From IMG/VR virus record IMGVR_UViG_2541047705_000011: a stretch of 42,469 bases of DNA, one strand, 5' to 3'. Below, one piece after another: positions 1-39,674 of this stretch. The notes beneath the pieces are model-generated. The model searched no databases, was not told where the DNA came from, and saw only the letters and a program-made list of their open reading frames with translations. This stretch comes from a virus (Duplodnaviria; Heunggongvirae; Uroviricota; Caudoviricetes). How positions within the stretch are numbered: position 1 is the first letter of the stretch; each line of letters starts with the position of its first letter. Both the position numbers and the translations under genes were made by a program.

Positions 1-516
1 ATGAAATTTAAAAAATGTCTTCTGCCTGTGGCAATGTTAGCGTCATTCACTCTGGCAGGATGCCAGTCAAATGCTGATGATCATGCCGCCGATGTTTATC
101 AAACCGATCAACTGAATACCAAACAAGAAACTAAAACCGTTAATATTATTTCCATTCTTCCCGCAAAAGTTGCCGTAGACAACGCCCAAAATAAACGGAA
201 CGCACAAGCCTTCGGCGCGCTTATTGGCGCTGTCGCTGGCGGTGTTATCGGCCACAACGTCGGGTCTGGCAGCAATTCCGGAACGACGGCAGGTGCAGTT
301 GGCGGCGGAGCTGTAGGCGCGGCAGCGGGTTCTATGGTGAATGATAAAACCTTAGTGGAAGGTGTTTCTTTAACATATAAGGAAGGCACCAAAGTGTATA
401 CCTCCACCCAGGTGGGTAAAGAGTGCCAGTTTACGACAGGTTTAGCCGTTGTTATTACCACGACGTATAACGAAACGCGTATTCAGCCAAATACCAAATG
501 TCCTGAAAAGAGCTAA
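1..516 (+). CDS. Glycine-zipper outer-membrane lipoprotein (YcfJ/17-kDa-antigen-like); host or conversion gene
   Basis: ORF track; signal peptide with lipobox LAGC; Gly/Ala-rich GAxxGxxxG zipper; starts at window edge. Confidence 0.6.
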   Translation: MKFKKCLLPVAMLASFTLAGCQSNADDHAADVYQTDQLNTKQETKTVNIISILPAKVAVDNAQNKRNAQAFGALIGAVAGGVIGHNVGSGSNSGTTAGAVGGGAVGAAAGSMVNDKTLVEGVSLTYKEGTKVYTSTQVGKECQFTTGLAVVITTTYNETRIQPNTKCPEKS

Positions 517-3147: not shown

Positions 3148-3159
3148 AACCATATATGA
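3148..3159 (-). promoter_or_regulatory. Copy of conserved late-unit motif CATATRTGGTT, upstream of lysis operon
   Basis: Minus-strand TCATATATGGTT about 60 nt upstream of holin start; related copies at 6578-6589 and 27269-27280. Confidence 0.35.
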
Positions 3160-3368: not shown

Positions 3369-3395
3369 CCCGCAATATTTTGCGGGCTTTTTTTT
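3369..3395 (+). terminator. Hairpin plus T8, canonical only in plus orientation, at tailspike 3' end
   Basis: CCCGCAA-TATT-TTGCGGG then C and T8; the T-run overlaps the tailspike stop codon; no plus-strand CDS upstream. Confidence 0.45.
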
Positions 3396-6300
3396 AACGT
3401 TCTTCCAGAGACTGAACCCGCTCTTTTATCTTATCCATTTCTCTGCGCTGCCATGCTGCCTCGATATAGAATAAGAGATCAGGTCTGACCCCCCATCTAG
3501 ATCCTGCTGGCGTTATTTCAACGCGCTCAATGATGTCTTCCATTACCATCACTGGATTATCATCCTCATCAACAATGATGCTCCCGTCATTATCAGTCAG
3601 CGGCATTTCCCTTTGGCCAGTAATGACGTCATCATATACTGCGGGATAATCGTCATAGCAAAGAAAGGCATAGCGGCATGTTGTGCTTTCTTCTTCCATG
3701 AGTCCGTGAGAAATAAGAACATCACGAAGTTGCTGCGCGATTACACCATGATGTATCCTCGCCCCTTCTTCCCCCTTTATAGCGACAGCGTTCAGCCATT
3801 TATAAGCGATATACCTGACGTCACCCCAGGCATCCAGCAATGCTTCGTCAGGAGAGACCGGCTCTGTCTTTAATGTTCCGTCACTGGTAACCACAGGATT
3901 GGAGCCAAGATAAACTGTCGAGAACCTGTTTCCCGGACCACCAAGAGCATTTACATTATCAAGATAAGGTTTAACATCTCCGTTCTCAAAAAGATGTTCG
4001 AGTGCGTTATATACCGCGCGACGTGGAGTACTGCTTCCGGAACCATGCAACGTTATCATTGCACCATCTGCTGAAGACGTTGTTTCACCTCCGCTAACGA
4101 TTAATCTCTGAGCGGTAACATCATCAGACGGTACTTTCTTCGCAATAATGGCGTAATTACCCTCAAGTTTGACTTCCGCGCGAACTTGTCCTGATGTACC
4201 TGCATGGACAGTCAGTGACTGGACGGCAACATCATCTGTGAAATCAACGGGTACAGGAACCGTCCTCACGCCTGACGTCGACATAAAAGTAGGAAGCGTT
4301 CTGTTAGGAGTGGCTCCGTAGACAAAATCCCTTGAAACAAATTCTTCCTGTTTAATTTTCACCCTGAAACAATACAAATCAGCCGGGTGACCATCGTGAA
4401 CATAAGGATATTTTCTGTTGTTATCCCCTATGCTCCATGGGTTTAGAAAGTCTTCCCCACCGAAAATGTAGTACAGCCAGTTGTCTTTGATACAAACTGA
4501 ACCAACACCAACCGCAGAGTTAACTATTCCGCCCTGATAAATCTGATCAGTAACATTAACCCACTCTACATTATCCAGACTCCACTCATTGACGTTAACT
4601 CTGGTCATAAATGTTCTTGGATAATTTCCTGCATAACGGTTATCAGGTTCTCCTCCTTCCCACTCACCAAATGCGCGCTCACTGCCAAAAATAATCAGCT
4701 CATCGCCAACTTTGGCAAAAGGAAGGTTTGAGTGATGAACATTATTTGGGAAGCGAAGAGAATTCCATGATGTACCTAAATCAGAGCTTCTGTGCAATGA
4801 ACTACCGGGTTGAGTACTTAATGTCCCCCTGGTCGTCAGATACAGAATGCCATCATAATATTTTACACATGGCTCAGATGCATTCGCCTCATATTCTGCA
4901 GGTATGCGTCTGCGAACAAAGCTACCAGGAGAACCGAAAGCATCAGAGAAATAGAGTATCCCAAGCTCGCGTGGACCAATATCACCATTATGGTAGCCAA
5001 CAGCAAAACTGTTATCGCTAATCGTCGCAAAACTGTGAATCTCAGTAACAGGAGTGCTTCCGTCAACAAAAGAAGGAATAGTTCCAAGACTGGTTTTTCT
5101 CCATGGTGACGAGTGAAATGATGTACCAAAACTCCAGTATCTACCCTCGTTATTCTGATCCACATCCTGGGTATTTTGCGTCGTAACTGTAAAAGTATTT
5201 TTATCAATAACAGTAGTCACCGTCATATTCCCGGTAACACCTGTAACACCAGAGTTTGAGAAGTTGACAAAATCACCAGCAAATAATCCGTGATCAGTAA
5301 TGCGAATATAAGCGACTTGCTGATTTGCTGCTTTCGTTATACCACCATAAACGCGAAGGCTGCGACTCATTGGGCGATCCCACAACTCTGCAACCTGCAG
5401 TTTATTTCCGCTCACGGTCCGCGTCTCAATTACAGCAAAAAGGCGATTTCTGACAACCCCCATACTCATGCAGTGATAGTTAACTGTGGGATAGTTTTCA
5501 TGTAAATCTGTAAGCCATTCCGGCGTTGTCCAGGTCTTCCCGTCATCTCCTGAGCGAACCCATGCAACATGGAGGTTATTTACACCATGGCGGTCTCCAG
5601 CCATAAAAGGCGCATAGATGACATTGTCATATACAAACGTTTTATCCTGCGTCCAGGCGTTGTACCACGGTGTATCTGTAATTTTAAATAACTCTCCCTG
5701 GATAAAATCTTCAGAAGCATAAAAAAGAGGCTGGCCCGGTATTCTCTCAAATAAAAAACGAGCATTTTTAAATCGACTGACATCCGGAAGAGTTGATACT
5801 TTAAAAGTAAGCCCTAATCCGTCAATTTTATAACCTGGAGATGAGGCTTCAAGGCACGCGCTTATTGCAGTGGAATCGTCATTTATACCATCACCAACAG
5901 CTCCAAAATCTTTGGGGCTAATAGCATCACGCATTTTATCCTGGAACGTTCGGTACACAGCCCCAGAACCATACTGAATAAACCAACCAAAACCACCAAC
6001 AACCCCGGCGATTGCAGCATCGACATAATTACGCATTGAGCGATTATTTACAGCGTCCTGCTCAAATGATGGATCTGCAAGGTTAGAAATTTTGTTTTGC
6101 TTTGCATCGTAATATTTTGCAAGCAAAGATGGTTTCATCAATGCACGTCTGAACCACCCAAAACATTGCTGGATCAGCATCGTCAGGTAGTCAAAGGCAT
6201 CTTCATGCACTTCGGGGAAAAATTTTCCCTGATTGCGAAGGTCTGTCTCCTGCACTACATCAAGCACACGATCTATCGTAATTCGCCATCCAGTAGCAAG

Positions 6301-6513
6301 CGGAGACGGAAGAACCACAGAACCGCCACTATAAGTGCCCGCCCCAGTTACCGTATAACCGGTATCCAGAACCAATTCTGTTACGTTCCCGTTCAGGTCA
6401 GACACCTGAACAACCAGGTCTGATTTTCTGAAAATTCGAAAAGTATACGGAAACGATGTCGTAACGCCGTTACCGGTGTATTCGTTGTGGTCAACTTCGG
6501 TTGAGACCGTCAT
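3394..6513 (-). CDS. Tailspike, endosialidase-like (endo-N-acetylneuraminidase) with C-terminal intramolecular chaperone
   Basis: 1039 aa; N-terminus has T7 tail-fibre-like pattern YxGxG..F..F..LVV; two Asp-boxes SGDDGKTW and SSDLGTSW; C-terminal SDGTLK and HHGVIAQQLRDV resemble the autocleaving chaperone of endosialidases. Confidence 0.7.
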   Translation of the reverse strand: MTVSTEVDHNEYTGNGVTTSFPYTFRIFRKSDLVVQVSDLNGNVTELVLDTGYTVTGAGTYSGGSVVLPSPLATGWRITIDRVLDVVQETDLRNQGKFFPEVHEDAFDYLTMLIQQCFGWFRRALMKPSLLAKYYDAKQNKISNLADPSFEQDAVNNRSMRNYVDAAIAGVVGGFGWFIQYGSGAVYRTFQDKMRDAISPKDFGAVGDGINDDSTAISACLEASSPGYKIDGLGLTFKVSTLPDVSRFKNARFLFERIPGQPLFYASEDFIQGELFKITDTPWYNAWTQDKTFVYDNVIYAPFMAGDRHGVNNLHVAWVRSGDDGKTWTTPEWLTDLHENYPTVNYHCMSMGVVRNRLFAVIETRTVSGNKLQVAELWDRPMSRSLRVYGGITKAANQQVAYIRITDHGLFAGDFVNFSNSGVTGVTGNMTVTTVIDKNTFTVTTQNTQDVDQNNEGRYWSFGTSFHSSPWRKTSLGTIPSFVDGSTPVTEIHSFATISDNSFAVGYHNGDIGPRELGILYFSDAFGSPGSFVRRRIPAEYEANASEPCVKYYDGILYLTTRGTLSTQPGSSLHRSSDLGTSWNSLRFPNNVHHSNLPFAKVGDELIIFGSERAFGEWEGGEPDNRYAGNYPRTFMTRVNVNEWSLDNVEWVNVTDQIYQGGIVNSAVGVGSVCIKDNWLYYIFGGEDFLNPWSIGDNNRKYPYVHDGHPADLYCFRVKIKQEEFVSRDFVYGATPNRTLPTFMSTSGVRTVPVPVDFTDDVAVQSLTVHAGTSGQVRAEVKLEGNYAIIAKKVPSDDVTAQRLIVSGGETTSSADGAMITLHGSGSSTPRRAVYNALEHLFENGDVKPYLDNVNALGGPGNRFSTVYLGSNPVVTSDGTLKTEPVSPDEALLDAWGDVRYIAYKWLNAVAIKGEEGARIHHGVIAQQLRDVLISHGLMEEESTTCRYAFLCYDDYPAVYDDVITGQREMPLTDNDGSIIVDEDDNPVMVMEDIIERVEITPAGSRWGVRPDLLFYIEAAWQRREMDKIKERVQSLEER

Positions 6514-6577: not shown

Positions 6578-6589
6578 AACCACATATGG
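6578..6589 (-). promoter_or_regulatory. Copy of conserved late-unit motif CATATRTGGTT, upstream of tailspike
   Basis: Minus-strand CCATATGTGGTT then N5 and GGTAATA, 65-76 nt upstream of tailspike start. Confidence 0.35.
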
Positions 6590-18044: not shown

Positions 18045-18589
18045 TATAATCCTCCGGGTAATCTGGTTCCTGCTGCTGCCCCGATTGGCGCAGGGGTGCT
18101 TTGAGTAAACGGACTCCACGTCCCACCAAACATCTGGTACGCACCGTATGCCTTCAGAGGCGCAGTGAGCAATGTTGTTGCTGCTCCCACATTCCCCTGT
18201 TTACGGGCTGAACTGGCTTCTGCTTTATAGTTGGCAGCCTGAACCTGATAACCGTAAGCCTCGCGTTGCGCGTTATTCACCGTCGTCAGAGAATCAAGAG
18301 CGCCAAACTGGGCAGTGTCGCCAAATATATCCAGCGCGTTACCTGTAGATAAATCAGCGCCGGTAGCCCCCATTGTCGCCGCCTGTGTACCAAGCCGCTG
18401 TCGGGTCTCTCTGCGCCGTTGCTCAGCTTCAGCGTTACCTCTGTTTATTGCATCATTTGCCTGAGCTGTGGCTATATCTGTGTTCGCTTCTGCAACCTTC
18501 GAGACATACTTTCCCTGTTGGTACTGGGTGTATGCCTGAATGCCACTCATGGCGAGCATTGCGCCACCAGCAATAACCGGATCGCACAT
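18044..18589 (-). CDS. Internal virion protein (181 aa)
   Basis: ORF track; Ala/Gly/Gln-rich; coupled to flanking genes. Confidence 0.55.
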   Translation of the reverse strand: MCDPVIAGGAMLAMSGIQAYTQYQQGKYVSKVAEANTDIATAQANDAINRGNAEAEQRRRETRQRLGTQAATMGATGADLSTGNALDIFGDTAQFGALDSLTTVNNAQREAYGYQVQAANYKAEASSARKQGNVGAATTLLTAPLKAYGAYQMFGGTWSPFTQSTPAPIGAAAGTRLPGGL

Positions 18590-27268: not shown

Positions 27269-27280
27269 AACCACATATGA
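27269..27280 (-). promoter_or_regulatory. Copy of conserved late-unit motif CATATRTGGTT, upstream of portal unit
   Basis: Minus-strand TCATATGTGGTT then N5 and GGTAATA, 39-50 nt upstream of the 27230 start. Confidence 0.35.
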
Positions 27281-27657: not shown

Positions 27658-27734
27658 GTGGCATTAGCTCAGTCGGACAGAGCAACCGCCTTCTAAGCGG
27701 TTGGTCGCAGGTTCGAATCCTGCATGCCACGCCA
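27658..27734 (+). tRNA. Phage-encoded tRNA-Arg (anticodon UCU)
   Basis: 77-nt cloverleaf: acceptor GTGGCAT/ATGCCAC, D-stem GCTC/GAGC, anticodon stem ACCGC/GCGGT with loop CTTCTAA, T-arm GCAGG-TTCGAAT-CCTGC, discriminator G, encoded CCA. Confidence 0.9.
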
Positions 27735-27932: not shown

Positions 27933-28352
27933 ATGAAAACAATTGATATGTTGGCTAAGTATCTAAATGAATGGCCATTAAAATATTCTCGTATCGTTCA
28001 GGCTGAAGACTGCGTTTTTTATGGCGTTTTTGCTGGTAATGAAATGCATTACGAAGTAATTCAGAGTGAGGGACTGGCCGGGTTAACTCTTAGCGAAGAC
28101 CATGGTACTAGCGTTACGTTCCATGACTGGATAACAGCACAACGTTCTGAAATGGAAAAAGGCGATGTGTTTGATATTTCTCGCGCTGTTTACGCTAAAG
28201 CAAAAAGTGATAATGATTACATGAGCGAACACTTATACAACATGAAGTTACAATGCCTGCATGCGGCGCTTATTCAGAATGGGTACTTCGATAAAACAAG
28301 TGCCATCAATATTGCGGAAGCCATCAACACTGGATTTAATGCCATTAAGTAA
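27933..28352 (+). CDS. Hypothetical moron protein (139 aa), no recognisable family
   Basis: ORF track; only plus-strand gene inside the minus-strand late region; RBS AAGGTGAG; terminator downstream. Confidence 0.6.
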   Translation: MKTIDMLAKYLNEWPLKYSRIVQAEDCVFYGVFAGNEMHYEVIQSEGLAGLTLSEDHGTSVTFHDWITAQRSEMEKGDVFDISRAVYAKAKSDNDYMSEHLYNMKLQCLHAALIQNGYFDKTSAINIAEAINTGFNAIK

Positions 28353-28372: not shown

Positions 28373-28399
28373 AGCCAGCCGATGAGCTGGCTTTGTTTT
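28373..28399 (+). terminator. Rho-independent terminator for moron gene
   Basis: AGCCAGC-loop-GCTGGCT then TTGTTTT. Confidence 0.65.
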
Positions 28400-28442: not shown

Positions 28443-29918
28443 TTAAGCATAGGGATCGTAATCTGTGATGGCCTTGCCTTGCTGGTTCTGCTGCCCGGGA
28501 ATTCGCAGACGCTTCGACACAGGGAACGCAAACGTCAGCAGTAGCGCATCGCCTTTACCCGGCGAACGCCCAAGCCGCTCCTTGATATCCTCCTTCGGTT
28601 CGATAACGATTTTACCGTCCACGCGAACTTTGTACTCTGCCGCCGACAGGTCGTCTGCAGTTTCCTGGTCATCCAGCATGCCGCCCAGCCTCAGCCATGT
28701 CTTACATGAGTTGAACATCTCCCCACGCTTGTTAAGCATCTGCGGGTCAGTGGACGCACCGCCGAACGGAACAAGTTGCCATGTGCGCCCCCAGCCGTCA
28801 CCGATTGACTTCAGACCAGTTCCGTAACCGAAGTCGATGAACACTGCGTCAGCCTGGTACTGGTCTTCAAAGTCAGCGATACGCTTCGCCATAATCAGAT
28901 CGTCAGTGGTCTTGTTGCCAGTCCATAGCACCTTACTGTGCAGCCCCTGCCGCAGGTATATCACAGCGTCATCAACGCCGGAGTACGCCGGGTCAACGCC
29001 GATTATCACCGGAGCATGTGCAACCTGCGCAGCGGTTACCACCCGTTTCATTGCCTCGTCAGTAAGACCGGTAGGGATAAACTGCAATTCAGATGCATCA
29101 GGGAATATGCCGCGCACACGGATTTTAACGAAGTCGCTGTCTTCCCCGTAGTCATCAACCCATTTCTGCAACTGCTGTTTGTTAGTGCCTTCCACCGTCC
29201 GGCTGTCAATCTGCGCACACTTCCAGCGGTGTTTGTACTTGCGGAAACATTCACGGAAACGCCCGGTGTTACGCGTCGGGTTCCCGAACGCCACCCAGAT
29301 GATTTCGGTGTCTTCGTCCGTAAGCGCACCCTCAGCAACTTCCCACACCAGATCCGCAATGTTCGACGCTTCATCGAATACCACGATGATGCGTTTGCGC
29401 TCGTTGTGTAGTCCGGCGAATGCCTCAGTGTTGTGCTCAGACCAGGGGATTGCGTCAGCTCGCCACCGCTTGTCGTGCCCAGGATCATTGCTGTACATCG
29501 CAGTAGCGGTACAGGTAAACCAGTCTTTCGTGATAGCAAGGTTCGACCACTTGATAATTTCCGGCCAGGTCTTCGTTCGTAGCTGGTTGTCGGTGTTGGC
29601 GGTCACCACGACCTTACAATCCTCGCAAGTGGACATGCCCCAGTTGATCAGCATTGAGATGAATGCGGATTTACCAATACCGTGACCAGAAGCGCGTGCC
29701 AGCATAAGCGGCTGATAGCGCGTCTCTGGATTCTGCAGGTGATCACGTATCTCTCGGAACGCATCAGCCTGCCACTGACGTGGGCCGGTAGCATGTGCCA
29801 GTTCAGTACCCTCTTCCCCCCACGGGAACGCATAGAGGGCATAGCCAAGCGGATCGTGAGTGAACCCTGCAATATCCTCGATTAACTGCTCTTCAGGAGA
29901 TAACGCTGTATCTGTCAC
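28443..29918 (-). CDS. Terminase large subunit
   Basis: 491 aa; Walker A ASGHGIGKS near N-terminus; nuclease-type C-terminal half; follows small subunit. Confidence 0.85.
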   Translation of the reverse strand: MTDTALSPEEQLIEDIAGFTHDPLGYALYAFPWGEEGTELAHATGPRQWQADAFREIRDHLQNPETRYQPLMLARASGHGIGKSAFISMLINWGMSTCEDCKVVVTANTDNQLRTKTWPEIIKWSNLAITKDWFTCTATAMYSNDPGHDKRWRADAIPWSEHNTEAFAGLHNERKRIIVVFDEASNIADLVWEVAEGALTDEDTEIIWVAFGNPTRNTGRFRECFRKYKHRWKCAQIDSRTVEGTNKQQLQKWVDDYGEDSDFVKIRVRGIFPDASELQFIPTGLTDEAMKRVVTAAQVAHAPVIIGVDPAYSGVDDAVIYLRQGLHSKVLWTGNKTTDDLIMAKRIADFEDQYQADAVFIDFGYGTGLKSIGDGWGRTWQLVPFGGASTDPQMLNKRGEMFNSCKTWLRLGGMLDDQETADDLSAAEYKVRVDGKIVIEPKEDIKERLGRSPGKGDALLLTFAFPVSKRLRIPGQQNQQGKAITDYDPYA

Positions 29919-30511
29919 TGATTGCCATCCTGACGTTCTTTCAGTCTCTTCCTGGCTGCCGCTATGCGATCAGCAATTGTCACATTCACATTAACATCCA
30001 GGCGTTCTTTGAATGCGTTGACGTCGACGTGCTTACCAATCAGTTCGAGGTTCTTCACCTTGTCAGGCCATTTAATTTTTTTGAGGATTGTCTCTATCGA
30101 ATCCTCGTTCATGTTCATGATGGTCGATGACAGATCAAAGCCGCTAAGCGTAGTGCGCCAGATTTTCGGCCACTCTCGGATTGGCTTAAGGCTACCATCG
30201 TCGTTGAGGATGTCGATCACGTCCATCTGGTCGATCTCCACCAGGCGCATGAGAACGTAATCAGCACTGACGCGCATTCGTTTGTTGCGCTCCTCCATCA
30301 ACTCGGCAATCCGTTTCTGAATGCGTTCATCGCGCATCATGACACTGGCTTTAACTGCCGCTGTATTTGGGGAGAATCCTGCATTAATCGCTGCCTGAGT
30401 CTGGTTTTCAGGCGTTTTGATGTATGACTGGCAATAAGCCTCCTGCATTGCTGTTAGTGGCTTAAATTGCGTTGATTTGCGTTTATAGGTTTTAGGTTCA
30501 GCAGGCATCAT
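29915..30511 (-). CDS. Terminase small subunit
   Basis: Start trimmed to ATG 30511 (MMPAEPKTYKRK); track ORF starts at TTG 30589 with no RBS; overlaps large-subunit start. Confidence 0.65.
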   Translation of the reverse strand: MMPAEPKTYKRKSTQFKPLTAMQEAYCQSYIKTPENQTQAAINAGFSPNTAAVKASVMMRDERIQKRIAELMEERNKRMRVSADYVLMRLVEIDQMDVIDILNDDGSLKPIREWPKIWRTTLSGFDLSSTIMNMNEDSIETILKKIKWPDKVKNLELIGKHVDVNAFKERLDVNVNVTIADRIAAARKRLKERQDGNQ

Positions 30512-30518
30512 AACCACC

Positions 30519-30547
30519 GTGGTAATAGTTACCGTTGTGGTAATAGT
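30519..30547 (-). repeat. Direct repeats GTGGTAATAGT x2 (18-bp period) upstream of terminase small subunit
   Basis: Copies at 30519-30529 and 30537-30547; contain the GGTAAT half-site; lie between an upstream terminator and the TerS start. Confidence 0.5.
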
Positions 30548-30553
30548 ACCATG

Positions 30554-30580
30554 CAAAATAAAGCCGCCATAGTTGGCGGC
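30554..30580 (-). terminator. Rho-independent terminator preceding the late operon
   Basis: GCCGCCA-ACTA-TGGCGGC then TTTATTTTG on minus strand, just after the 30586 stop. Confidence 0.6.
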
Positions 30581-30585
30581 AGTAT

Positions 30586-30798
30586 TCAAAGTCCATCAAA
30601 TTCATCGTAAAAACTCTCGTCAAGATACCCTTCCCATTTACCGCGAATGAAAATTACATCCTCGCCGCAAGGGTGCTGACTGTCGATAACTATATCCCTC
30701 CTGACGCAACCATACTTATGCATGAGAAATTTAACCTCTTTCGGAAAATTTGCTGAGTTATCTCTCATATCTTCAAGGTCGTAGCGTATTTTTGGCAT
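30586..30798 (-). CDS. Hypothetical small protein (70 aa)
   Basis: Start trimmed to ATG 30798 with RBS GAAGGTG; the track start at 30819 is the ATG inside the palindrome. Confidence 0.45.
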   Translation of the reverse strand: MPKIRYDLEDMRDNSANFPKEVKFLMHKYGCVRRDIVIDSQHPCGEDVIFIRGKWEGYLDESFYDEFDGL

Positions 30799-30819: not shown

Positions 30820-31157
30820 ACTATTAATTTCGTTTCATGCCAGCCTTTGGTCACCCAGCATTGCGAGTCACCATTACACGGGCATGAATTAACTGGAACT
30901 CTCTCGCCGCACTTACCGCAACGTTTTCTGCTGATCGATTTTATACGCCCGCGCACGCGTGCATCATCCTGGCGGATCAGTAACGCTATATACTCACCAA
31001 ATTCGTAAGGTGCACGCCCGGGGCGACGCGTGGCGCAGTTCCGCTCCAGCATTTCAATTTCCTGAGCATCAAGCACAATTTCCAGCTTACGCACACCAGA
31101 TGCAGCTTGTCTGGCTCTCTGAGCGGCTTTGCGCTCTGCTGCTGATTTAGCCATCAA
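30816..31157 (-). CDS. Small basic protein with N-terminal RHH-like segment and C-terminal Cys cluster (zinc-ribbon-like)
   Basis: 113 aa; AERKAAQRARQAASGVRKLEIVLDAQEIEMLE then CGKCGERVPVNSCPCNGDSQC. Confidence 0.5.
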   Translation of the reverse strand: MMAKSAAERKAAQRARQAASGVRKLEIVLDAQEIEMLERNCATRRPGRAPYEFGEYIALLIRQDDARVRGRIKSISRKRCGKCGERVPVNSCPCNGDSQCWVTKGWHETKLIV

Positions 31158-34106: not shown

Positions 34107-34151
34107 TAAAAACCACATAAGACACGAAATCAATAGATTTCAGAATATTTT

Positions 34152-34204: not shown

Positions 34205-35005
34205 TTACTTGATAAATCCTGCCGCCTTTCCCCGCCTGTATTCCTCCATCAGCCACTGCGCCGGTGTTATTCCCCCCAGGGTGGCGGCGTTAGGCATGCA
34301 CCCGAAACTTCGCCCTGGTGGATGGTAAACGTCTCTCCCTGTGTCCGGAGGCGTACTCATGGGTTCTGGCTTTGCCTGTATGCTGATCACCGGATCGGGT
34401 ATCTGCTGTCCGGAAGCCACCTTTTTCGCCCAATCATCGAGCAGCCTGCGCGCGTGTTTCTCAACCTCAATCTCGCTAAGCTGGCGCTGATACATTGCAC
34501 GGCGGGTATCACATACGACCCAGTACATAACCGGATGCCGCCACGGGAATCTTTCGGGACCACCAGGATATAAACTTTTTTCCTTGCTGTACCGGTGAAA
34601 CTCCGTCATCACATCGTCAATGGTGACGCCAAGAACCATCTTGCTGTCTTTGCACCACTTGATGAATTGCCCTGGCGACGGCCAGAACGGAGAATCACTG
34701 GCGCGGGCGTGGCGCATACCAGCAGAAACCTGTTCACGGGTTCGGATCCCACCTTCGGCAAACGCAGCAATCCACTGCTGTTTTGCAGCAACTTCCTGCT
34801 CTGGCGTCTTCAGGTTGGTTACCACTGCCGCCGGAAACAGTTGTTTCAACTGTTTGAAAAGGGCATCAACAAGCCTCTCTGCTGACATGTTCACTACGTT
34901 GTCATTGTTGGTGTACTGATGCTCATAACCTGACATGCGAGAAAGGGCTTCTCCGTCACGGTTTTGTATTGCGGTAAAAACGTTGTTCACAAGAAATCCT
35001 CCCAT
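34205..35005 (-). CDS. Replication protein P-like (helicase loader)
   Basis: Lambda-P-like core SAGMRHARASDSPFWPSPGQF; overlaps O-like stop. Confidence 0.8.
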   Translation of the reverse strand: MGGFLVNNVFTAIQNRDGEALSRMSGYEHQYTNNDNVVNMSAERLVDALFKQLKQLFPAAVVTNLKTPEQEVAAKQQWIAAFAEGGIRTREQVSAGMRHARASDSPFWPSPGQFIKWCKDSKMVLGVTIDDVMTEFHRYSKEKSLYPGGPERFPWRHPVMYWVVCDTRRAMYQRQLSEIEVEKHARRLLDDWAKKVASGQQIPDPVISIQAKPEPMSTPPDTGRDVYHPPGRSFGCMPNAATLGGITPAQWLMEEYRRGKAAGFIK

Positions 35006-35802
35006 GCTTCAGGGCTGTTCCAGTGCGGAACGTTGTTATCAGGTAATGTTGATTGCTTCTGTCTGCTAATCTGCAGCCGCCTTGCCAGCTTCTGCTCCCA
35101 CTGTGCCTGATGGTATGCCTTACCCTCAGCCATCCAGTAAATTCTGAACTCTGCAAGTTCCTGTGCCGTTGGCAGACTGTCCAGGTAGATTCCCTGCAAT
35201 GAGCTTTTCCGAAGAAAGTCATCTGATGGCTGCCATTGTTCATGCATGACAAATTTGCCTAATTGCCCTGGCCCACCAGGAGGAACAAAGTTATTCATCA
35301 CGGCGTTGTTTGCGCCGGGGTCATGAGGCACAGAATCCCCGGTTTTTGTCCTGCTCTCCCTCTCTTGGTTAAATGACTGGTTATATGACTGGTTCTGGAT
35401 CCCGTTTTTGGGATCATTCAACATCCCGTTTTTGGGATCATTCAACATCCCGTTTTTGGGTATATTCCCGTTTTCGGTAACATTACCGTTTTCGGGTTCA
35501 TTACCCCCTTCCCGGTTGCCTTTAATGTTCCCGTTTTTGGTTATATTAAGAGAGAAAACCCGCACTCTTTTCGTCGCTCCCTTTCTCTCTCCGGTATCTG
35601 AAATAAGCCCCATTTTCATGAGCGATATAAGCCCGGCCTGCACGGTTTTTTTATTCAGGCAAGTGTCTTTAACGAGGCGTTCTATGCTGGGGTAGCAGAG
35701 GTTATATTCATCGGCTCTGTCAGCCATCGAGAGCAGTATGAGCTTTAATGACGAGCTACCTGGATCTGTCTCCCAGGCCCAATCTGTTGCATGTCTGCTC
35801 AT
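34987..35802 (-). CDS. Replication initiator O-like protein with internal ori iterons
   Basis: RBS GGAG; HTH-like N-terminus; repetitive KNGxxNDPKNG middle encoded by DNA iterons. Confidence 0.75.
   Translation of the reverse strand: MSRHATDWAWETDPGSSSLKLILLSMADRADEYNLCYPSIERLVKDTCLNKKTVQAGLISLMKMGLISDTGERKGATKRVRVFSLNITKNGNIKGNREGGNEPENGNVTENGNIPKNGMLNDPKNGMLNDPKNGIQNQSYNQSFNQERESRTKTGDSVPHDPGANNAVMNNFVPPGGPGQLGKFVMHEQWQPSDDFLRKSSLQGIYLDSLPTAQELAEFRIYWMAEGKAYHQAQWEQKLARRLQISRQKQSTLPDNNVPHWNSPEAWEDFL
35401..35541. repeat. Iteron array (candidate origin) inside the O-like gene
   Basis: About six copies of CCCGTTTT(T/C)GG at 18-24 bp spacing, two as perfect 24-bp tandem ATCCCGTTTTTGGGATCATTCAAC. 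Confidence 0.65.
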
Positions 35803-36553: not shown

Positions 36554-37138
36554 ATGAAAAGTATCCAGGACGTCCGCAGGCAAAATCTCAACGACTTGAT
36601 CGACCGTGAATTCAATGGTGTTCAGACGCGGATGGCAGAAAAACTTGGAACTCAGGCAAATCTGGTAAACCGCTGGGCTCTTGGCAAGAAGGTTATCGGC
36701 GACCAGGTTGCGCGAAAAATTGAAGCTGCCGCCAATAAACCCCGTAACTGGCTTGATATCGATCGCTCGCTTTCTCAGGAAGGTTTTCAGCCTGTCGGCC
36801 CAAGCGACATTGGTCAGCTGGCGGCTCACAACCTGGAACGCTGGATGAGCGAAAGCCGCGACCTTTCAACACAGGGAAAACTTCACCGCGCATCCGGCGT
36901 CGCCCAGGTGACAATCAGCCGCCTGTTAAACAATGAGGTCAGCGTTTCCATTTCCACCCTGGAGAATGTTGCATCCGCATTCGGGCGTCACGGATATGAA
37001 CTACTGATTCACCCGCACGACCCTGCGACTATCAACTATGACCGCTCGCGCTACGCATTGTTACCCGAAACCGAGAAAGCAAAGATCGAAAGTTACATTG
37101 AATTTGTCATCAACCAGAACGAAAAAAACAAACAATAA
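36554..37138 (+). CDS. CI-like repressor with two HTH domains and no recognisable S24 peptidase domain
   Basis: 194 aa; HTH segments TRMAEKLGTQANLVNRW and LHRASGVAQVTISRLLN; no Ser-Lys autocleavage module seen; weak SD. Confidence 0.65.
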   Translation: MKSIQDVRRQNLNDLIDREFNGVQTRMAEKLGTQANLVNRWALGKKVIGDQVARKIEAAANKPRNWLDIDRSLSQEGFQPVGPSDIGQLAAHNLERWMSESRDLSTQGKLHRASGVAQVTISRLLNNEVSVSISTLENVASAFGRHGYELLIHPHDPATINYDRSRYALLPETEKAKIESYIEFVINQNEKNKQ

Positions 37139-37160
37139 AATCATATTTTTCAGTAAGTAA

Positions 37161-37182
37161 GCCGCCTTCTGGCGGCTTTTTT
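37161..37182 (+). terminator. Rho-independent terminator after CI-like gene
   Basis: GCCGCC-TTCT-GGCGGC followed by T6. Confidence 0.8.
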
Positions 37183-38651: not shown

Positions 38652-39674
38652 ATGTCTATCAATGCACTTAAGGCAGCGGCTACCGGTAACCAAGTTGCAC
38701 ATCATAATGAGAAACCAACAACTCTGGCCGGACTTCTGGCAGACCCAAAAATTAAAGCTCAGATGGCTTTGGCACTTCCAAAGCACATGACAGCAGACCG
38801 TCTGGCGCGCATAGCAACCACAGAGATCCGAAAGGTTCCAAAACTTGCATCATGCGACCAAGCCAGCTTCCTGGGGGCAATTATGCAATGTGCCCAATTG
38901 GGTCTTGAACCAGGCGGAGCTCTTGGACACGCTTACCTGATACCGTTCGACAAACGCCAGAAAGTAAATGGAAGATGGGAAACCGTATCTACAGAAGCAC
39001 AGCTGATTATCGGCTATCGCGGAATGATTGACCTTGCCCGCCGCTCTGGGCAGATCCTGAGTATCTCGGCTCGTACCGTACATACAAACGACAAATTCAG
39101 CTACTCATACGGCCTGGAAGAAACGCTCGAGCATTTACCTTGCGAAACAGGTGACCGCGGAGAATTAACGCACGTTTACGCCGTTGCACGACTGAAAGAT
39201 GGCGGAGTCCAATTTGAAGTTATGAGCCGGGCAGACATTGAGAAAGTTCGTGCACTGAGCAAAGCCGGTAGCAGTGGCCCATGGGTTGATCACTTCGATG
39301 AGATGGCTAAAAAAACAGTAATTCGCCGACTATTCAAATATCTTCCTGTTTCTATTGAAATGCAGAAGGCTGTTGTTATGGATGAGCACGCTGAAGCTGG
39401 ACTTAGCCAAGATAACGCAGCTGTTATCACTGGTGAATATTCCGTAGTTGACGATGAGCGTCAACACCTGTCGCCAATTTCAGATTCAGAACGAGAAGAA
39501 GCTCGAGAATATATCATCGCGATACTTAATAGCCTGGATCCATCTGCTGAAGATGCAAAAACGATGTTCAAGCGCGCTGAAAATGAGATTAACACCATGG
39601 CTGAAAAGCTCGGTGATGAATATCACCAAAAATTCATGATGACGCTTAACGATATGCGTCCAGAATTCGAGTAA
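38652..39674 (+). CDS. RecT-family single-strand annealing protein
   Basis: RBS AAGGAG; typical RecT-family length and position after the exonuclease. Confidence 0.8.
   Translation: MSINALKAAATGNQVAHHNEKPTTLAGLLADPKIKAQMALALPKHMTADRLARIATTEIRKVPKLASCDQASFLGAIMQCAQLGLEPGGALGHAYLIPFDKRQKVNGRWETVSTEAQLIIGYRGMIDLARRSGQILSISARTVHTNDKFSYSYGLEETLEHLPCETGDRGELTHVYAVARLKDGGVQFEVMSRADIEKVRALSKAGSSGPWVDHFDEMAKKTVIRRLFKYLPVSIEMQKAVVMDEHAEAGLSQDNAAVITGEYSVVDDERQHLSPISDSEREEAREYIIAILNSLDPSAEDAKTMFKRAENEINTMAEKLGDEYHQKFMMTLNDMRPEFE

Follow-up and report, generated by a model that had tools for sequence, protein, structure and literature searches.

A putative repressor-controlled promoter with two tandem operators between an intrinsic terminator and terS in an epsilon15-like Escherichia coli prophage

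The closest described systems are those of phages epsilon15 and SPC32H. Secondary sources describe SPC32H Rep (Rep/Ant; PDB 5D50, 5D4Z) as binding palindromic sites as a tetramer, by means of a looping-type tetramerization domain, and as being released by an antirepressor. The RefSeq record of epsilon15 (NC_004775.2) marks TTACCAAAACGGTAAT at 12..27, directly upstream of terS, as a protein_bind feature labelled 'repressor', an annotation which may itself be computational, together with seven further protein_bind 'repressor' sites and a terminator (39646..39672) just before the terS site. The locus described here shows the same order of terminator, palindrome, Shine–Dalgarno (SD) sequence and terS and the same 17-bp motif as epsilon15, and in both phages dispersed sites are also found upstream of the portal operon and the tailspike and beside the repressor gene. 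It differs in that a second site (O2) and a TGnTAnTAT element, both discussed below, are unannotated in the epsilon15 record. SPC32H has a homologous Rep and carries the motif in the same places, including positions 11–27 upstream of terS.

The DNA stretch analyzed (hereafter the window; 42,469 nucleotides) is an Escherichia coli prophage of the epsilon15/phiV10/TL-2011b type (genus Uetakevirus), whose close relatives are integrated next to guaA; the segment under study matches 1161 of 5426 complete E. coli genomes. All relevant genes around 30519–30580 lie on the minus strand, with terS and terL downstream and small early-right genes upstream, one of them encoding a PHROG-536 'transcriptional regulator'. 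Between terL and the portal operon, the opposite strand carries tRNA-Arg (anticodon TCT; 27658–27734, plus) and a Gp49-family gene (27933–28352, plus), and a plus-strand terminator is located at 28373–28392. A DnaT-like replication gene (34987–35802, minus) contains tandem-repeat arrays at 35366–35505, namely 2.6 copies of a 24-bp unit ATCCCGTTTTTGGGATCATTCAAC (100% identical) and arrays of 12-bp and 18-bp units, which are probably origin iterons. Since the annotation of near-identical E. coli prophages gives the tailspike (3394–6513, minus) as an endosialidase beta-propeller protein, the window prophage may target the K1 (polysialic acid) capsule.

In the minus-strand direction, the stop codon of a 77-aa open reading frame (30586) is followed by the terminator, the repeats, the SD sequence GGTGG (30518–30514) and the terS start codon. 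Read 5′ to 3′, this strand gives the hairpin, TTTATTTT, GCA-TGgTACTAT, TACCACAACGGTAAC-T-ATTACCACGGTGGTTAT and G-ATG at 30508, after which the terS coding sequence begins. The stem-loop GCCGCCA-ACTA-TGGCGGC (30580–30563, minus) starts 5 nt past the stop codon and is recovered by a consensus terminator scan, by minimum free energy (MFE) folding and as an inverted repeat. Its stem comprises seven pairs, six of them G-C, closed by a 4-nt loop, and the T-run TTTATTTT (30562–30555, minus) follows directly; it thus has the composition and the position at an operon end expected of an intrinsic (rho-independent) terminator, a G+C-rich stem-loop with an immediate T-run. The hairpin is present in the MFE fold of a 101-nt segment (−36.9 kcal/mol, z = −5.6), is orthologous to the terminator annotated in epsilon15 and is kept in other genera with G-U changes. 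The scan and the fold bear out the preliminary description, which had a 7-bp GC hairpin with a T-run closing the nin-like (early-right) gene string. Such a terminator would stop transcription arriving from the early-right genes and would thereby insulate a terS–terL unit.

Downstream of the terminator, GTGGTAATAGT occurs on the plus strand in exactly two copies, at 30519–30529 and 30537–30547, with a start-to-start spacing of 18 bp; its minus-strand (gene-strand) sequence is ACTATTACCAC. The preliminary description had reported these two 11-bp copies between the terminator and the TerS start and had pointed out that they contain the GGTAAT half-site of a dispersed palindrome. Both statements are accurate, the first to the exact coordinate. 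As a statistical signal the bare 11-mer repeat is only marginal: the expectation per window is 0.21 exact pairs within 30 bp, and 15% of Markov simulations contain one or more.

The palindrome itself is a far stronger signal. Searching the window for ATTACC-N5-GGTAAT with up to two mismatches gave 14 matches against 1.17 expected, a number reached by 0 of 100 shuffles. The motif is present in more than 12 places of the genome and precedes most transcription units, and all matches with no or one mismatch sit in gaps between real genes. Two such matches, each with one mismatch, lie in tandem upstream of terS. The first, O1 (30544–30528; ATTACCACAACGGTAAC on the minus strand), is the ortholog of the 'repressor' site of epsilon15, has GGTAAC as its right half in the window, overlaps a predicted −10 element and transcription start, and scores 16.4 bits with a position weight matrix (PWM) trained without O1. 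The second, O2 (30526–30510; ATTACCACGGTGGTTAT on the minus strand), covers the SD sequence and abuts the start codon; it scores below 8 bits in the window, compared with 11.2 in epsilon15, and is a weaker and less conserved site than O1.

Each 11-bp repeat consists of the left half-site ATTACC, its 5′ flank ACT and two spacer bases. Copy 1 (30537..30547) is made up of 3 nt of the −10 element, the left half of O1 and 2 nt of the spacer, and copy 2 (30519..30529) of the last 2 nt of the O1 right half, the linker T, the left half of O2 and 2 nt of its spacer, so that both copies belong to O1 and O2. The 18-bp period arises because two 17-bp sites are joined by one base. The distance of 18 bp between the operator centres places O1 and O2 on different faces of the helix, which counts against reading the site as a repressor-controlled promoter, as do the low score of O2, its degeneracy in a Klebsiella relative and the lack of a consensus-scan promoter at terS.

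Conservation was assessed in 80 loci encoding identical TerS (18 distinct 65-mers) and in relatives from nine host genera. Among the 18 E. coli variants, changes fall in the spacers of O1 and O2, in the one-base linker, at the 'n' of TGn and at position 3 of the −10 hexamer; the half-sites are changed in only two singletons, which alter the right half of O2. Substitutions at 30527 (T to A; 6 of 18 variants) and 30519 (C to A, G or T; 7 of 18) interrupt the 11-bp repeat, which shrinks to roughly 7 bp in other genera and is perfect in the E. coli lineage alone. Across 11 sequences from the nine genera, TG-n-TA-n-TAT-TAC(C)-N5-(G)GTAA is invariant, with variable spacers and a variable O1–O2 linker that also shows indels of 1–2 nt. 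Three sequences that have an unrelated upstream gene and lack the terminator still keep TGnTAnTAT and O1. The left half of O2 and GGTAA(C/T) are kept in most genera, even where the SD sequence is not conserved (Buttiauxella, Erwinia dacicola), and O2 is degenerate in the Klebsiella phage ST11-OXA245phi3.2.

This pattern indicates that the selected units are the palindromic half-sites and TGnTAnTAT, not the 11-bp direct repeat. The repeat is real, but the functional unit proposed here on comparative grounds would be a pair of tandem 17-bp palindromic operators, and in this respect the preliminary description, which treated the direct repeats as the element, requires amendment. The repeat would then be a by-product: the left half-site and the T preceding it would be functionally fixed, and the four extra flanking bases would match by chance in the E. 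coli lineage.

The distribution of the palindrome also bears on which protein binds it. The prophage repressor gene rep (36554..37138, plus) encodes a 194-aa protein, the presumed binder of O1 and O2, which is a full-length homolog of SPC32H Rep (PDB 5D50; E = 4e-42, about 50% identity). It is bracketed by operator motifs, with sites 36435, 36466 and 36483 upstream, between the Cro-like gene and the repressor gene, and sites 37195 and 37257 just downstream. Site 37257 overlaps the last two bases of the −10 element in a scan-detected, near-consensus PL-like promoter, TTGACA-17-AATTAT. The motif's presence on both sides of the repressor gene and on this −10 element makes a repressor the likeliest binder, not an activator. 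Bracketing of the repressor gene together with overlap of PL is the classical signature of immunity operators, and we infer that Rep would bind O1 and O2 as well; sequence alone cannot tell Rep, the Cro-like protein and another factor apart.

Several features expected of Rep operators are present, namely a 17-bp palindrome, synteny with relatives, a cognate Rep gene flanked by the motif, and half-sites that are kept around a free spacer. The motif upstream of terS is syntenic in epsilon15 (12..27), phiV10 (86–102), SPC32H (11–27), 65FD and Klebsiella phage ST11-OXA245phi3.2. In a scan of these five phages the motif occupied the same syntenic positions as in the window. All sampled relatives (65FD, the Klebsiella phage phi3.2 and SPC32H) share the same half-site and a conserved N-terminal domain of Rep, no heteroimmune relative being among them. 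No operator data were found in the ZX5 paper.

Of the remaining sites listed here, one precedes the tailspike (6617) and one the portal operon (27320), and two follow the replication genes, upstream of nin-region genes (34090 and 34152). A nin-region promoter, TTGATT-17-TTTAAT at about 34100, had been proposed by eye; the promoter scan did not call it, and we make no claim for it. Some operators are paired at exactly 62 bp centre to centre, or about six helical turns (34090/34152 and 37195/37257 in the window, 32554/32616 in epsilon15). Abutting pairs 17 bp apart, similar to the O1–O2 pair, also occur in the gap between rep and the cro-like gene (36466/36483 in the window, 33340/33357 in epsilon15). 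These spacings point to two favoured geometries of a tetrameric repressor, 62-bp pairs on the one hand and abutting pairs of 17–18 bp at terS and in the rep/cro gap on the other. The tetrameric state given for SPC32H Rep by a secondary source fits the paired operators of the window. A layout resembling that at terS, with terminator, T-run, operators and promoter in succession, is seen after the repressor gene, where a plus-strand terminator (37159–37178) is followed by the segment 37195–37273, leading into the PL-like TTGACA-17-AATTAT.

The wide dispersal of the motif also counts against a role in packaging. The preliminary description had offered a packaging-related site as one possibility. 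On this reading the repeats would be boxes for the small terminase subunit, similar to pacL of SPP1, marking the start of headful packaging. They do lie directly upstream of terS, and TerS belongs to Terminase_2, the family of SF6/SPP1 G1P according to the HHpred note in the epsilon15 record. The annotation likens TerL to headful terminases (P1 PacB, Sf6 gp2), so a pac site must be present somewhere. Moreover, ATTACC-N14-GGTAAC precedes terS in Aeromonas phage 51, the TerS of which shares 59% identity with that of the window. However, a pac signal is expected to be nearly unique in its genome, and the repeat is the half-site of a motif with 14 matches, spread over more than 12 intergenic positions, some of them on either side of the repressor gene. 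No such motif was found upstream of terS for four of the five TerS homologs from unrelated phages that were checked (Pseudomonas 15b, vB_EcoM-611R5, Morganella IME1369_01 and phi297). In the fifth, Aeromonas phage 51, the spacing differs and the motif is absent elsewhere in the genome, and we judge the resemblance to be due to chance. The region in question (KY290953.1, about 18500–18560) consists of a terminator followed by TATTGACATTACCGATTGACAGCACTAGGTAAC, with ATTACC and GGTAAC 14 nt apart and a repeated ATTGACA. A literature search found no data on genome termini of Uetakevirus. Taken together, we regard a packaging function of the repeats as very unlikely.

Database records disagree on whether the interval between the terminator and terS is coding. 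We place the start of terS (Terminase_2 family; 29915..30508, minus) at the second ATG, 30508, which is preceded by the conserved SD sequence at a distance of 5 nt and is the start used in the epsilon15, TL-2011b and SPC32H records; 2 of the 18 distinct E. coli variants no longer have the first ATG. RefSeq/PGAP (WP_001090120.1) and the phiV10 record (YP_512255.2) instead begin at TTG 30589, from which the frame is indeed open and which overlaps the upstream stop codon within TTGA. Starting 27 codons too far upstream (30509–30589, minus), this call puts the terminator and both operators inside the coding sequence. In the resulting 224-aa TerS the hairpin and repeats would be coding sequence, the latter specifying a TITT-TVTITT peptide repeat. 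This extension would contain a canonical terminator. Of 12 relatives, 6 have it interrupted by an in-frame stop 1–13 codons before the conserved ATG, and it also carries 1–2 nt frame-breaking indels. The short TerS matches Pfam PF03592 (E = 1e-29) from residue 18 onward. On the strength of the in-frame stops, the indels and the position of the domain we reject the TTG start, and a coding role of the repeats has hardly any probability left; the domain start and the stops in relatives likewise mark the region between the terminator and the terS ATG as non-coding.

Within this non-coding interval, TGgTACTAT (30551–30543, minus) is predicted to be an extended −10 element, with TG at 30551–30550 and the hexamer TACTAT at 30548–30543. 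It has the sequence features of a sigma-70 extended −10, in which TGn directly precedes a TATAAT-like hexamer carrying T1, A2 and T6, and its TG, TA and TAT belong to the positions invariant in the 11 sequences from nine genera. Transcription is predicted to start near A30536. The first base of O1 coincides with hexamer position 5, a register shared with the operator at the PL promoter. The consensus promoter scan called no −35/−10 promoter at terS, and there is no −35 element; an extended −10 promoter needs none. We consider it probable that the locus is a repressor-controlled promoter for terS–terL, insulated from the early operon by the terminator, with Rep binding, promoter activity and the start site all deduced from the sequence.

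A promoter devoid of a −35 element is often activator-dependent, and direct repeats are typical of some activators. The repeats could accordingly be bound by a positive regulator of the phage, such as the 113-aa regulator encoded a short way upstream at 31157–30816 or a PerC-like protein, which would switch on a late promoter; a gene for a PHROG 536 'transcriptional regulator' does lie two genes upstream. However, the 11-mer is not kept as a direct repeat, the palindromic half-sites alone being conserved, and the same palindrome brackets rep and overlaps the −10 element of a promoter close to consensus, for which no activator is required. The portal, tailspike and lysis units have in common the box CATATGTGGTT-N7-TA(A/T)nA(n), placed about 30–40 bp downstream of the operator in each; this box, which terS lacks on its upstream side, is the more plausible activator site. 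Activation through the direct repeats is therefore a reading to which we give little weight, although somewhat more than to packaging.

The CATATGTGGTT box is found at 27269–27279, 6578–6588 and 3148–3158 (all minus), and also at 34111–34121, and is kept in epsilon15, phiV10, SPC32H, 65FD and a Klebsiella phage. This box may serve as a late promoter dependent on an activator, or as a leader element, and appears better suited to the former role than the site at terS. The preliminary description had suggested the late-operon promoter or an activator site. A regulatory promoter site upstream of terS is retained from that suggestion; the activator role is not, and with the late box absent, the site is probably not 'the' late-operon promoter.

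The repressor-controlled promoter that we favour would work as follows. A weak extended −10 promoter lacking a −35 element, placed right after the terminator, would serve a two-gene terS–terL unit; the phiV10 record has a further terminator after terL, and for this reason terS–terL looks like a separate two-gene unit. In the lysogen, Rep on O1 would occlude RNA polymerase, and Rep on O2 would add a cooperative partner or a roadblock. Once an antirepressor removed Rep, the terminase genes would be transcribed.

O2 lies within a leader of about 28 nt, over the SD sequence. The tandem palindromes, when transcribed by read-through, could fold into a long hairpin that buries the SD sequence and the AUG, possibly besides their role in DNA. 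The predicted fold of the RNA 30556–30470 has −20.7 kcal/mol, with ACCAC paired to GGUGG and the AUGs paired, compared with only −6.6 to −9.3 kcal/mol for RNAs starting at 30536–30532. However, such a hairpin follows automatically from any tandem pair of palindromes, and linker indels shift its pairing. The paired bases are the conserved half-sites, which leaves no compensatory changes to test. Rfam gave no match, a single sub-threshold rseX hit (E = 0.96) being rejected. If the operators were dual, with the DNA binding Rep and the RNA of read-through transcripts hiding the terS ribosome-binding site, translation of terminase would be limited to transcripts starting at the Rep-controlled promoter inside O1. 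We consider such double duty unlikely, both as an RNA leader and as a joint function of DNA and RNA, while holding it the least improbable of the alternatives discussed here.

In sum, we regard the locus as an operator/promoter cassette of an ordinary kind, the ortholog of which already appears in the epsilon15 annotation, and its significance beyond annotation is small. The additions made here are modest: the second site O2, the conserved extended −10 element, a revised start for TerS and the lack of the late box at this site. They correct a common TerS start-codon call and present the terminase genes of a widespread E. coli prophage family as a terminator-bounded unit of their own. This unit is apparently silenced directly by the immunity repressor, not through a late antiterminator of the lambda type.

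In several respects the locus resembles OR and OL of lambda, where tandem 17-bp imperfect palindromes likewise overlap the −10 element and the +1 position and cooperative repressor binding is implied. It differs in that CI does not act at the packaging genes of lambda, where one late promoter together with Q antitermination serves the late genes, whereas in the window operators precede most units and each unit is closed by its own terminator. Short repeats beside the start of a Terminase_2-family terS also recall pacL and pacR of SPP1, small-terminase binding repeats located around the 5′ end of gene 1, but the repeats of the window are part of a genome-wide palindrome and are not unique to the terS region. 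The stoperators of cluster A mycobacteriophages (L5, TipsytheTRex) offer a further parallel, with many repressor sites across the genome, including structural genes, that silence the prophage beyond its early promoters. However, stoperators are asymmetric 13-bp sites bound by a monomeric repressor and block elongation in an orientation-dependent manner, whereas the palindromes of the window are symmetric, lie at unit starts, correspond to a Rep whose homolog is a dimer or tetramer, and are most simply regarded as classical operators. The dispersed-operator layout is thus a modest parallel to mycobacteriophage stoperators in a podophage of a Gram-negative host, and one already reflected in the epsilon15 record.
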